From Escherichia coli (lineage in GTDB: Bacteria; Pseudomonadota; Gammaproteobacteria; Enterobacterales; Enterobacteriaceae), in the NCBI RefSeq assembly GCF_009931435.1, contig NZ_CP043414.1: a DNA stretch of 64,000 nucleotides; one strand, written 5' to 3'. The position numbers are program-made. Shown one piece after another: positions 3,001-6,000 of the stretch. The first letter of the stretch is position 1, and every line of letters begins with the position of its first letter.

Positions 3001-6000
3001 TCCGCGTTAGACCTAATTCTATCGGAAATAACTACTATATTTCAGGGTATCTTAATTCCATCCATGGCAAAATCACATTGATGAATATGTGTAAAAGTAT
3101 TGTTGGCATGGCTAATATTAATGCACAGGAATTGCAGAATATAGAGATATTAATCCCACCTAAGCATCTACAAGATGAGTATGAGATTATTTATAAAAAA
3201 ATAAAAAAAGGACTAAGCATTTATGATAAAAGCGCAATGCAACTTCAACTTTTAGCATCAAACCTATCGAATAAATATTTCATGTAAGGTTCATTATGAA
3301 ATTAACTAAACTTGTACTTGAAAATTTCAGATCTGTTAGAGAGCGGCAGGAAATTGATTTTGCACCTGTAACATTACTATTGGGGCCAAACAGCGCGGGC
3401 AAGACTACTATTTTAATTGCATTATTTTATCTTCAACAAATATTAGACCGTGAGCAGTGTGATCCTATATATTTAGAAGCTATGGGGAACAGGCGCATAG
3501 ATGGATTTAGATCTCTAGTCCATAATGGGGATCTGAATAATGTAATTACTATTGGTATCGGTTTCGATCCTGAACAAACAATAGGTGTAGAATATAAAAC
3601 ATATTTAGAAGAACTTGGTGATATTTTCGATATTCATTTTATAAAAATGAAAGACATTGCAGATGAAACTGAAAAGGTTTATGTAGAATTTAAAATCGCA
3701 TGGTCACAATTGCACAGAGCAGCATATATAAAGAACTATGCTGTTTCTATAAATAATGAATTTATTGGAGAGCTAAGTAATGATGAGTATACTAAATCAT
3801 CTTTAGTAAATAGATTGAACTTTACTCATCCGTTGCTTCTTCCTATTGATTATAATTTATGGCTTGAATCTATTGATAAGGAAGGATTAGATACGATTGC
3901 CAGTGAATTTGAAATATCTTTAAATGACTTAATTCCTGGCTTAGAACGTAATAAAAGTGGTGCAACAGAGCGAGTAAAAACTGTTGATTATATATTTGAA
4001 GAAGATAAAGAAAAACCAATGTTTCCTGTTTTTTTAAAGACGAAAATTGGTGCGTTACCTCAACTGGGAAGAACTGTTGATACAAATTTGAAAGTTTTTG
4101 ATATATCCGAGCCAGTTGAGTATTTTAATCGAGATATAATCACCAGAGTGCTAACGCAAGTTTTTACTTCTCCGTTAGATAAATTAAATAATTATTTAAA
4201 GGCTAGCGTATCTATTGGACCGTTAAGAATTATACCTGATTCTTCATTTACGCCAAATCCTTATCCAGAACAAAATGGATGGTTTGATGGTACATCAGCA
4301 TGGGATAAGCTGTGTTTATCTCAACAAAATGATAGTGATTTGATTAAAAAAGTAAGTGATTGGTTTTCCAATAGAGATAAACTAAACACTAATTATAATA
4401 TATTTAGTGGAGGAGAATTTGATATAAAAACCTCCCCTCAACTTTTAGGTCTGAAAGATAATGTTTACTTCTGTAAAATAGATTCAAGCCAAATGTTATT
4501 TCCAAATCAAGTCGGTGTCGGATTAACTCAGATAGCACCTCTTATTATTGCAGCCAATATAGTTCAGGATGGATTAATTGCTATAGAGCAGCCTGAGCTA
4601 CATATTCATCCCGCTTTACAACTCGCTGTAGGTGATCTGTTTACCCAATATCCCCTTGATGTTAAAAGACCTATGTTTTTAGTCGAAACACATAGTGAGC
4701 ACATTTTGCTTCGAATTTTAAAAAGAATTAGACAAACAACGGACAATGAATTACCTGAATCAAATTACCCAGTAAAACCTGATTTTATATCAGTGATCGT
4801 TTTCGAGGATAATAATGGTTCGACTGTTACTAGGAAAATAGATATTACTGATGATGGTGACTTCAAACAAAAATGGCCCAAAGGTTTCTTCGAAGAAAGA
4901 AGGGGAGAGCTTTTTTAATGTTCTACGAATGCGCCATTTCACCAGAGGCTTTGTTTGAGATCGCAATTGATCGGAGAAATTATCGTGACTTCATAAAAGG
5001 ATTTTCTACGGGCGGTAACTTTCTCTATAGTGAATTACCAAAGCTGAAGAGAAATAAAAAACAATTGCTTGGGCTATTAAATGCTAATCATAGTGAACTT
5101 CAAAAAAAACGATTAGAGGACCTTATTATTTTTTTGAAAAATAATAAGGTTAGTAGGGTTTATGATTATGTTGGTGACATGTCATGGTCAGATAACATCT
5201 CTGCTGTAAATCGAATTGAACAATTTGATCATGTAGTGAGTTCTACTCCTTGTGATAACCTTGATGTAACTAATATAGATGATTTCTTTGGGTTAAATTA
5301 TGCTCGGCAAAAAATTGTTGCTAGAATTGCTGAGGATATGATATCTATAATCTCACGCTTATTAAAAACATCAGAGCATATTATTATAGTTGACCCATAC
5401 TTTAGTGACAAACAAAGATGGTGGAATGTATTTATTTCATTACTTAGCGTTAGTGCTAATAACTCTTATAAAAAAAATTTAAAGATAGATGTTATATTTG
5501 ATGGGAGTAAAGAAAACTCCCCAACGGTGAATTATTTGGCTAATAAGTTGAACCGCGAAAACCTTGTCTTTCCAGACGATTTTAAATTATCAGTAACATT
5601 TAAGTCTTTAACTTCTCGCGAGGGTAATGAACGTCTGCATAATAGATATGTTCTTTCTAATGTTGCTGGAGTTTGTTTCATGCATGGTTTAGATGAGGGA
5701 GAAGGAACGGATGATGTCTCAATTTTGTCGAAAGAGGGATATAATAAAAGATGGGAACATTACACTACGAATAATGTTTTTGATTTAATAGAAGAGCGTG
5801 AAGTTATATGTTAAGTATTTCCCTTACTGTTTTCAATTAAATCCTACAAACTTATTAGGACCCTTTAAAATTTATTCAACACGCCAATAAAAAATCTAAT
5901 TCTATTAATCTTGACCTGGTCTATCAAAATGATAGACCAGGCTTCTGTTATCTACATTACTTCTAGTGAAATAGCCAACCAATCGTCCCTATAAGGCAGG

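Follow-up and report, generated by a model that had tools for sequence, protein, structure and literature searches.

The described defence system closest to the two genes considered here is Menshen (NsnA-NsnB-NsnC), reportedly described by Millman et al. in 2022. The genes encode a 540-aa ATPase and a 298-aa partner protein and lie directly behind the Type I specificity gene hsdS in a 64,000-nt stretch of Escherichia coli DNA (contig NZ_CP043414.1 of assembly GCF_009931435.1), the whole of which is referred to below as the window. Modules tied to restriction are also known from PrrC, encoded within the EcoprrI hsd locus and set off by the T4 peptide Stp, and from PARIS, whose ABC ATPase is AriA and which is triggered by the anti-restriction protein Ocr.

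In Menshen, NsnB combines AAA_15 with DUF3696 and departs from the usual ABC motifs twice, having Arg at the position of the Q-loop Gln and GxG at that of the SGG signature (PMC12065111). One class of NsnC consists of an inactive PIN domain followed by a PB-PLD1 domain, with Asp/Glu after strand beta2 and an HDR motif, and this domain is most similar to MIT_C; MIT_C-like PLD domains also form the C-termini of the BREX BrxL proteins (PMC12065111). AlphaFold 3 models of NsnB4-NsnC2 have been presented, and the structures of Septu and PARIS were discussed alongside them (PMC12065111). Since the published census of Menshen was seeded on NsnA, pairs without NsnA would have escaped it (PMC12065111). 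Regarding gene context, RtcR-like regulators beside restriction-modification (RM) systems were noted in 2014 (PMC4012209), and RtcR-RM-CoCoNuT defence superoperons were described in 2024 (PMC11090510).

The comparison presented below indicates that the ATPase-partner pair is a real candidate defence module, for which a mechanism may be proposed by analogy. With moderate confidence we read it as an autonomous module of the Menshen NsnB/NsnC type, with an effector gated by the ATPase, that would work without an NsnA sensor and that forms the last two genes of a Type I operon. The original prediction, made from the sequence of the window, had put forward a translationally coupled ATPase-partner module behind hsdS as a candidate phage-defence system; its coordinates, the 8-bp spacer after the hsdS stop, the TAATG overlap and the lengths of 540 and 298 aa were all confirmed from the sequence.

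The ATPase, its partner and their operon

The ATPase had been assigned to the ABC/AAA_15 type, and Pfam agrees, placing AAA_15 in two segments (residues 1-136 and 354-470) and a weak DUF3696 match at residues 495-539; the motifs GPNSAGKT, IEQPELHIHP (residues 430-439) and VETHSEHIL (463-471) are all present. Among the best 25 of its 112 PADLOC matches, the ranking is PDC-M55A (1.4e-40), NsnB (3.2e-37), HEC-03B (6.7e-25) and AriA (5.5e-22). The GajA, PtuA and OLD models cover only the P-loop region, the AbiLi model matches weakly (2e-10), and in a comparison with PDB sequences OLD and PtuA were matched, over the P-loop alone. The suggested likeness to ATPase-nuclease defence pairs is retained, but the closest described relatives are Menshen NsnB/NsnC and not AbiL/RloAB, PARIS or Septu, which had been named (NsnB 3e-37 versus AriA 5.5e-22).

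Thirty ATPase family members from partner-linked loci were aligned (alignment A4; 1369 columns, 20% mean column identity). AAA_15 was found in 30/30 and DUF3696 in 17/30 at E<=1e-3 or 28/30 at E<=0.1. Arg311, in YIGPLR, replaces the Q-loop Gln and is invariant, so that the ATPase displays the features described for NsnB, namely AAA_15 with DUF3696, a Q-loop Arg and GxG. By analogy with the AlphaFold 3 models mentioned above (PMC12065111), the DUF3696 tail is proposed as the docking site of the partner. Residues ~100 to ~340 are long and poorly conserved in A4, and this variable insert of ~200 aa would be the best candidate for a sensor.

The partner has no significant match in Pfam, NCBIfam or PHROGs and only two matches in all in PADLOC, with NsnC at E 0.0027. 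A word-indexed search yielded enterobacterial homologues only (74-99% identity), and an exhaustive profile search, run over 1.84 billion cluster representatives, retrieved 1018 relatives with E<=1e-3, of which 377 reach E<=1e-10. With few exceptions the relatives are full-length, at ~300 aa. The family thus comprises 1018 clusters at 50% identity from many phyla. None of Pfam, NCBIfam, PHROGs and PADLOC contains a model for it, and UniProt and AFDB list it as uncharacterised throughout; current defence-finding tools therefore miss it. Foldseek against AFDB50 retrieved 276 relatives, almost all named 'Uncharacterized protein', with a few automatic names such as 'WYL domain-containing protein'. 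The family profile had no match among PDB sequences even at E<=10.

An alignment of 103 diverse homologues, 22-38% identical to the query, revealed conservation of M1, P9, P41, R65, R80, W90, D159, P160, H241, R243 and G257, with the consensus motifs FVDPYF and GGExLHNRYILTDxGGVxFGxGLD. Given this alignment, AlphaFold2 modelled the partner with a pLDDT of 97.0 and a pTM of 0.92; with 10 close homologues only, the pLDDT was 45.6. The original prediction had found neither an HNH nor a clear Toprim signature in the partner and had called for structure prediction and for searches with AAA_15, DUF3696, RloB and DUF4435 models. The former returned a PIN-like domain followed by a PLD-like domain, and the latter placed AAA_15 and DUF3696 in the ATPase and found no AriB, DUF4435, RloB (PF13707) or HNH match to the partner in Pfam or PADLOC. 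A Toprim (RloB/AriB) or HNH (PtuB) identity was therefore rejected.

The only conserved acidic positions of the N-terminal domain are E4 (92%), position 8 (88% D/E; Ser in E. coli) and D68 (72%), and the full PIN catalytic set is thus lacking. The predicted C-terminal domain has the PLD fold. The chain contains a single H241-N-R243-x4-N248 motif, with the family consensus being HxRx4D, as against HxKx4D in catalytic PLD domains; position 248 is D/E in 80% of the family and Asn in the enterobacterial clade. Within the 103-member alignment a single Pfam family, MIT_C, is matched repeatedly, albeit weakly (4 members at E<=0.1, best 1.8e-3). The predicted structure has the NsnC layout, an inactive PIN-like N-domain joined to a PB-PLD1/MIT_C-like effector domain, and the partner is accordingly modelled as a PIN-like plus PLD-like (HxR) protein of the NsnC 'inPIN + PB-PLD1/MIT_C' architecture.

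The pair stands at the end of a run of five genes, hsdR, hsdM, hsdS, ATPase and partner, all on the plus strand (Table 1), so that HsdR, HsdM and HsdS of a Type I RM system are encoded upstream in the same orientation. The coordinates of the hsdS, ATPase and partner open reading frames (ORFs) were read directly from the window sequence. The hsdR 3' end is identical to that of the annotated 1137-aa HsdR in E. coli FORC 064 (locus L001 of our set); in NCBIfam, hsdR matches the type I endonuclease model PRK11448 at E 1.8e-99, under the curated cut-off, and PF08463 (EcoEI_R_C) was found in a relative. The hsdM stop and hsdS start share 4 nt, and a Shine-Dalgarno-like AAGG at 3286-3289 overlaps the hsdS stop. 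An alternative in-frame partner start (ATG 4873) would give 313 aa; the 298-aa form appears preferable in view of the RefSeq annotation, the 98% conservation of Met1 among the 103 homologues and the conserved stop/start junction.

Crude motif scans revealed no terminator-like hairpin and no plus-strand sigma-70-like site from the hsdS start to the ATPase gene. Taken with the spacing, this suggests co-transcription of the pair with hsdMS as the simplest reading, and the hairpin past the partner stop is likely to be the 3' end of the transcription unit. The GC content falls within the operon from ~52% in hsdR/hsdM to 38-41% in hsdS and 30-37% in the ATPase and partner genes, which indicates that its 3' part has a different history. 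The two ORFs are not chance products, since they run for 540 and 298 codons in DNA of 30-37% GC and have hundreds of homologues each. Intact integrases occur 3' of the pair in loci L002-L004. A sigma-54 promoter was also sought and rejected, as a motif scan of window positions 1-7000 found no match to the consensus.

Table 1. Features of the hsd operon and its 3' module in the window
Feature	Position	Strand	Basis or remark
hsdR 3' end (Type I restriction subunit, EcoAI/EcoEI-like)	28..426	+	Window opens mid-gene; ORF C-terminus ...LGVVTDAATV
Terminator-like hairpin between hsdR and hsdM	439..458	+	8-bp stem, 6 GC pairs, then TTGTATTT; consensus match only
hsdM, Type I methyltransferase	490..2124	+	PADLOC MTase_I PDLC03021, E 6.2e-193, full length; RefSeq: subunit M
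hsdS, Type I specificity subunit	2121..3287	+	PADLOC Specificity_I, E 5.9e-125; stop TAA 3285-3287
8-nt spacer, hsdS stop to ATPase ATG	3288..3295	+	Sequence GGTTCATT
ATPase ORF, 540 aa	3296..4918	+	ATG 3296, TAA 4916-4918
Walker A GPNSAGKT (residues 30-37)	3383..3406	+	G30, N32, G35, K36 invariant in A4
GxG motif G407-V-G409, in place of ABC SGG signature	4514..4522	+	G407, G409 invariant in A4
Walker B region LIAIEQPELHIHP (residues 427-439)	4574..4612	+	E431, P433, E434, H438, P439 invariant
H-loop ETHSEH (residues 464-469)	4685..4702	+	E464, T465, H466, S467, E468 invariant
DUF3696 C-terminal tail (residues 495-539)	4778..4912	+	G521, F523, W527, P528, G530, F531, F532, E534, E538 invariant
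TAATG stop/start overlap, ATPase/partner (putative translational coupling)	4916..4920	+	1 shared base; partner ATG 4918-4920
Partner ORF, 298 aa	4918..5814	+	NsnC-like (predicted PIN-like N-domain and PLD-like C-domain)
Partner PIN-like (Rossmann-like beta-alpha) N-domain, ~residues 1-137	4918..5328	+	Predicted secondary-structure order, PIN structural matches; approximate boundary
Partner PLD-like C-domain, ~residues 138-298	5329..5811	+	Predicted structure
Asp159, end of strand IIIVD (family motif FVDPYF)	5392..5394	+	D/E in 99% of 103 homologues
HNRYVLSN, i.e. HxRx4(D/N), HKD-like variant with Arg (H241, R243, N248)	5638..5661	+	H241 98%, R243 100%
Terminator-like hairpin ~100 nt past partner stop	5915..5941	+	12-bp stem, 6 GC pairs; consensus match only
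Integrase remnant, integrative island edge	6037..6221	-	Mapped from RefSeq annotation of L001 (14742-14926, frameshifted integrase)

Related loci across phyla

A pattern scan of one genome per species identified 44 related loci, and metagenome contigs added further ones; ORFs were called in all of them and searched with profiles made from the window genes. The 44 loci belong to Gammaproteobacteria, Betaproteobacteria, Desulfobacterota, Myxococcota, Binatota, Acidobacteriota, Gemmatimonadota, Planctomycetota, Latescibacterota, Calditrichota and others. The ATPase gene is located directly 5' of the partner gene at 50/50 junctions and in 41/41 pairs tallied from the genome scan. The 50 junctions comprise 21 with a 1-nt TAATG/TGATG overlap, 6 with a 4-nt ATGA overlap and 21 with a gap of 0-3 nt, with extremes of -11 and +5 nt.

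Upstream context was compared in 32 informative loci, which have at least 6 kb of upstream sequence. In 23 of them, hsdM and/or hsdS of the window's Type I family are found upstream on the same strand, mostly as a full hsdR-hsdM-hsdS set. The hsdS gene abuts the ATPase gene (<300 nt) in 15 loci, the gap being below 50 nt in most directly adjoining cases, and in 7 loci the gap is 1-6 kb. The R-M-S-ATPase-partner order on one strand recurs in Gammaproteobacteria, Desulfobacterota, Binatota, Acidobacteriota, Planctomycetota, Myxococcota and others, at partner identities of 22-38%. The hsd linkage noted in the original prediction is thus real, but it is not an E. coli peculiarity: it crosses phyla and usually comes with an RtcR-like activator that E. 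coli lacks.

This RtcR-like CARF/AAA+/HTH sigma-54 activator (PADLOC RtcR_PspF2, E down to 1e-196) is encoded in 24 of the 32 informative loci, directly 5' of hsdR or, where RM genes are missing, directly 5' of the ATPase gene or divergent from it. In the whole set, it was located upstream of hsdR (L011, L012, L014, L017, L022-L024, L028, L032, L034, L037, L039, L040, L045), upstream of the ATPase gene (L008, L020, L021, L031, L033, L035, L043, L044, L047, L050) or on the opposite strand on either side of the pair (L015, L018, L026, L036, L049). In about 20 loci the sigma-54 consensus TGGCAC-N5-TTGC(A/T) follows 1-40 nt past the stop codon of the RtcR-like gene, and this fixed position argues that the sites are real promoters. 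The independent RefSeq annotation of the Azotobacter plasmid pAcX50d shows a comparable series: a 'sigma-54 dependent transcriptional regulator', then fragments of hsdM and an hsdS gene, and finally an 'AAA family ATPase' and a 'hypothetical protein'. Neither the window nor the E. coli and Enterobacter loci have the RtcR-like gene, and the motif scan did not find the sigma-54 site in the window, L001, L009 or L016.

In eight of the 32 loci an RtcR-like gene accompanies the pair and RM genes are missing, and L010, where the pair adjoins parE, has neither RtcR-like nor RM genes. As RM is thus dispensable to its occurrence, the pair is probably an autonomous module; that a quarter of the informative loci are devoid of RM favours a module co-expressed with restriction as a second layer. 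Three loci carry tandem ATPase-partner pairs (L021 4699-10912, L031 4798-10948, L050 4323-11740), and the second partner copy in L021 and L031 is very divergent (E 1e-15 versus the family profile). On the Deinococcus sp. AJ005 plasmid p96k (L057 8022-16192), the pair adjoins an McrBC-like pair (AAA family ATPase and DUF2357), and no Type I RM is found there. Decayed copies, in which the ATPase gene is split or truncated or the partner gene is split, were observed in L008 (1723-3847), L018 (9953-10921), L029, L033 (4503-6170) and L044.

The RM-less loci also invite a non-immune reading, in which the pair is an RtcR-controlled module for the stress response or for processing RNA or DNA ends, comparable to RtcR-RtcBA, or an addiction module of the island, and its PLD-like domain may be non-catalytic. 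Canonical RtcR controls RNA repair, these loci have RtcR-like activators and sigma-54 promoters immediately 5' of the pair, the decayed copies fit such a role, and MITD1, the nearest solved HxR-type PLD domain, is not known as an enzyme. The consistent presence of defence genes in the neighbourhood argues otherwise, as do the position of the ATPase in the OLD/AAA_15 clade, whose characterised members are defence ATPases, and the 98-100% conservation of D159, H241 and R243, which would be unusual for a pseudo-enzyme. Moreover, RtcR-like regulators already head RM and CoCoNuT superoperons (PMC4012209, PMC11090510). On balance, a non-immune role appears improbable.

Where the gap between hsdS and the ATPase gene is wide, it is filled on the same strand by other defence genes: Avs4 (L025 3090-8189), Dsr1 with a second AAA_15 ATPase (L027 2201-8256), Shedu SduA (L037 6856-8052), PDC-S08 (L011 7269-8240), or a CBASS phospholipase, cyclase and HNH protein (L048 4583-7680). 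The insertion of complete other defence systems at this point indicates a cargo slot within the operon. In the metagenomic locus L006, a 201-aa ORF with no family match (2501-3106) lies between hsdS and the ATPase gene and contains GACGFYSIVNAI, possibly a Cys-peptidase-like motif.

Insertability of this kind is hard to reconcile with the pair being an integral accessory of the Type I enzyme, whereby the ATPase would recruit a PLD-like nuclease or processing subunit to HsdR-stalled DNA. Such a role would be in keeping with the conserved operon arrangement and with the MIT_C-like PLD domains at BrxL C-termini (PMC12065111). We give it little credence, given that the pair lacks RM genes in a quarter of the informative loci, that the Type I family mostly works without such subunits, and that 86 of 424 E. 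coli genomes with the same hsdM type have neither the pair nor the alternative pair described below.

The pairwise identities of the encoded proteins were compared across 23 loci by Spearman correlation and Mantel tests. The identities of hsdM and ATPase are correlated (Spearman 0.67, Mantel p about 5e-4), as are the ATPase and partner distances (0.44, p about 5e-4); no correlation was observed between hsdM and partner (0.02), with the partner being near saturation at 18-30% identity. The hsdM-ATPase correlation reflects block co-inheritance, as judged from these identities, and is not by itself proof of a physical interaction.

The same correlation could be expected if the pair were a PrrC-like guard of restriction, silenced by a working Type I enzyme or sensing DNA mimics of the Ocr/ArdA type, and killing the infected cell when a phage disables restriction. 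The position of the pair at the 3' end of hsdRMS on the same strand, abutting hsdS in 15 of the 32 loci across phyla, and the cohesion of the cassette despite the defence inserts between hsdS and the ATPase gene are consistent with this, and PrrC (T4 Stp) and PARIS (Ocr) would be precedents, with the AriA match being the weaker one (5.5e-22). Against a guard stand the 8 of 32 loci where the pair has an RtcR-like gene and no RM, L010, and the tandem pairs that occur away from RM genes; the hsdRM backbone in E. coli also exists with other cargo or an empty slot, and the correlation may be mere block inheritance. We therefore consider a guard rather unlikely, and an autonomous second layer remains the preferred reading.

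The sensor of Menshen, NsnA (ParB-DUF262), was not found in the window, the E. coli island or the 44 related loci by PADLOC on the upstream genes tested. A DGxQR scan of all ORFs of 52 loci gave three matches, none directly 5' of a partner-linked ATPase gene; one of them is the extra AAA_15 ATPase ORF of L027.

The slot after hsdS in E. coli

The 2.5-kb pair is present at >=99% identity in 273 of 5426 complete E. coli genomes (about 5%), always on the chromosome. A DNA search of PLSDB plasmids did not find the pair, and a protein search of phage genomes gave no match. A plasmid origin of the locus was rejected in spite of the presumed IS1, mer and TEM genes nearby, as all 279 E. coli matches are chromosomal. 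In E. coli FORC 064, the annotated order is hsdR (1137 aa), hsdM, hsdS, 'AAA family ATPase' (WP_000778955.1), 'hypothetical protein' (WP_000499116.1) and the integrase remnant.

The window-type hsdM is found in 424 E. coli genomes, mostly at >=95% identity, and 273 of these have the pair. In 65 others of E. coli the genes behind this hsdM are a PDC-M01 pair (ATPase and HNH protein) that overlaps the hsdS stop, and 86 of the 424 have neither. An example of the alternative cargo is provided by E. coli RIVM_C037134 (L053 10819-13186), where the hsdR-hsdM backbone is 96% identical and the proteins match PADLOC PDC-M01A/B and PtuA; a gop-beta-cll system lies upstream of the hsd operon in this locus. 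The window ATPase and the PDC-M01 ATPase are only ~25% identical over 174 residues. ABC-ATPase plus nuclease pairs are thus cargo that joins the E. coli hsd operon in frame.

In some E. coli, Dsr1 or SIR2 genes follow hsdS on the opposite strand. Behind hsdS, loci L055 (8832-13350) and L056 (8873-12409) have a 228-aa hypothetical gene with Dsr1, or a SIR2-family gene; in both, a WYL-domain gene and a GTPase-family gene are located 5' of hsdR, and L056 ends with an integrase and tRNA-Leu. What follows hsdS in E. coli is therefore a variable slot for defence genes, which holds the pair or PDC-M01 or adjoins Dsr1/SIR2. An identical ATPase is paired with different hsdS alleles.

This variability raises the question of whether the pair simply landed in a hotspot beside hsdS, on a leuX-type E. 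coli island, with no functional or transcriptional tie to the operon. The contents of the hsdS-integrase segment (the pair in 273 genomes, PDC-M01 in 65, Dsr1/SIR2 in others), the sharp GC drop from 52% to 30-37% and the combination of one ATPase with several hsdS alleles would all follow from chance juxtaposition. It could hardly account for the recurrence of the R-M-S-ATPase-partner order across phyla at 22-38% partner identity, for the hsdS-ATPase gap of less than 50 nt in most direct cases or for the co-divergence of ATPase and hsdM, and we regard it as very improbable.

Other genes of the flanks may be mentioned. In L001 (566-4302), the region 5' of hsdR encodes a divergent thymidylate-synthase-like protein (well below NCBIfam cut-offs), a 314-aa hypothetical protein, an XRE-family regulator whose C-terminal part weakly matches Lit/spr1629-like models, and a MazG-like protein, which may constitute another defence or nucleotide-modifying module. 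On the other side, past the island edge, the window contains an outer-membrane protein gene (7084-7830) and a phosphoethanolamine-transferase gene (8015-9517), as annotated in L001. Next come ORFs presumed to be IS1 transposase (9704-10401) and merR-/merT-like (10508-11364), and a 286-aa minus-strand ORF (11640-12500) that is presumably a TEM-type beta-lactamase. A putative resistance region thus runs from window 9704-12500 onward; in other strains this flank carries Tn10 tet(B) (L001) or an IS1-flanked OXA-244 (L053).

Proposed mechanism and comparison with known systems

In the proposed mechanism, the anatomy of the operon suggests that the pair would be transcribed with hsdM-hsdS and the two proteins made by coupled translation. 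By analogy with NsnB4-NsnC2, Septu and PARIS, an ATPase oligomer could keep the partner inactive, the DUF3696 tail gripping its PIN-like N-domain. An infection cue, for which the ATPase insert is the candidate sensor, would alter ATP binding or hydrolysis, and the partner would then be activated or released. In Nuc, BfiI and Zucchini, two single-motif PLD domains make one active site; since the PLD-like domain here has one HxR...D half-site, the partner would have to pair with a second copy for an active phosphodiesterase. The paired partner could then cut nucleic acid and so stop either the phage or its host cell. Outside the enterobacteria, the RtcR-like CARF activator and sigma-54 promoter would switch on the module, alone or with RM, in most relatives; the E. 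coli copy appears to have lost this control, and its expression is probably coupled to that of hsdMS. Restriction-modification and the module would in that case be two layers in one defence locus.

Several observations weigh against this reading. Defence genes cluster anyway, and the association with RM could partly be island co-location; in E. coli, the region 3' of hsdS is demonstrably a variable slot. The sequence link between partner and NsnC is negligible (E 0.0027), and the PB-PLD1 class of NsnC was likened to it by description only. Catalysis by an MIT_C-type HxR PLD-like domain is hypothetical, the nearest solved PLD-domain relatives include the non-enzymes MITD1 (membrane-binding) and the FAM83 pseudo-enzymes, and two acidic positions of the family are occupied in the E. 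coli clade by Asn (248) and Ser (8).

A wider reading could also be hypothesised, in which the pair is the terminal effector of a hitherto unrecognised, cross-phylum, inducible and layered superoperon that leads from an RtcR-like activator through Type I RM and an optional cargo slot to the ATPase and the PIN/PLD protein, the ATPase guards restriction, the HxR PLD domain is an active nuclease of a new catalytic subtype and the E. coli locus is a constitutive, regulator-less derivative that would open the class to tests in a model organism; we hold this to be possible, though doubtful. If the module is active, it would mean that a Menshen ATPase-effector core can work without the ParB-DUF262 sensor, and a defence module integrated into a Type I restriction operon would be open to study in E. 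coli, a tractable host. Activity would also bear on whether PLD domains of the MIT_C (HxR) type, as in BrxL and human MITD1, are enzymes, and the RtcR-like/sigma-54 control would extend inducible layered 'superoperon' immunity beyond CoCoNuT.

The superoperons that combine Type I RM and ancillary systems with Type II/III-A CoCoNuT (PMC11090510) resemble the relatives of the pair in that an RtcR-like activator heads a one-direction hsdR-hsdM-hsdS series with optional defence inserts and a terminal effector module. However, the terminal module here is an ATPase with a PIN/PLD protein and not the McrBC-derived CoCoNuT, and the E. coli locus has neither the RtcR-like gene nor the sigma-54 promoter. 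With the PLD nucleases Nuc, NucT, BfiI and Zucchini, the partner has the predicted PLD fold in common, while its motif has Arg and not Lys.

RloA/RloB and PrrC/RloC are, like the pair, ABC-type ATPase modules in or appended to Type I hsd loci, and the precedent of restriction-linked modules of the PrrC type, invoked in the original prediction, was a fair one for a pair that adjoins such a locus. In RloAB, however, RloB/AbiLii is a Toprim protein, which the predicted partner fold is not, and PrrC/RloC is a single polypeptide with an anticodon-nuclease domain, as opposed to two ORFs here; no PrrC/RloC model appeared among the best 25 of 112 PADLOC matches of the ATPase or the two of the partner.

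PARIS and Septu share the principle of an ABC (AAA_15/AAA_21-type) ATPase dimer that holds a small nuclease, and the Septu-like PDC-M01 fills the identical slot behind hsdRMS in 65 E. coli genomes. AriB of PARIS is a Toprim/DUF4435 protein and PtuB of Septu an HNH protein, in contrast to the PIN-like plus PLD-like partner. The AriA model matches the ATPase over its full length, at 5.5e-22, more weakly than NsnB and PDC-M55A do, and the PtuA match is limited to the P-loop. As the effector folds differ, the pair is not PARIS, Septu, AbiL/RloAB or PrrC.

The ATPase also matches PDC-M55A (1.4e-40) and HEC-03B (6.7e-25), both from candidate systems flagged by context, but the partner matches neither PDC-M55B nor HEC-03A, even at E<=10, and the effector is therefore a different one. 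A literature search returned nothing on PDC-M55, and literature searches that included both RefSeq protein accessions found no paper describing the pair; for DUF3696 together with type I restriction, only the Menshen paper was found. The suspicion that the module is a divergent or undescribed variant is in keeping with its lack of NsnA, with a partner without a family model and with this literature result.

Menshen differs from the pair in its defining gene, NsnA (ParB-DUF262 plus ParBDB), in place of which hsdS lies directly upstream here, the wider context being an RtcR-like activator with hsdRMS. The partner forms one coherent full-length family, as against the shuffled, polymorphic NsnC set; the ATPase has an insert of ~200 aa relative to the 345-position NsnB model, and its Walker B reads EQ where NsnB of S. 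silvestris has EN. What the two have in common is the NsnB architecture of the ATPase, including the unusual Q-loop Arg and the GxG that stands where SGG is expected, the predicted NsnC layout of the partner, with its conserved acidic residue and H-x-R, and the order from ATPase to effector; and Menshen, too, often adjoins Type I RM systems.

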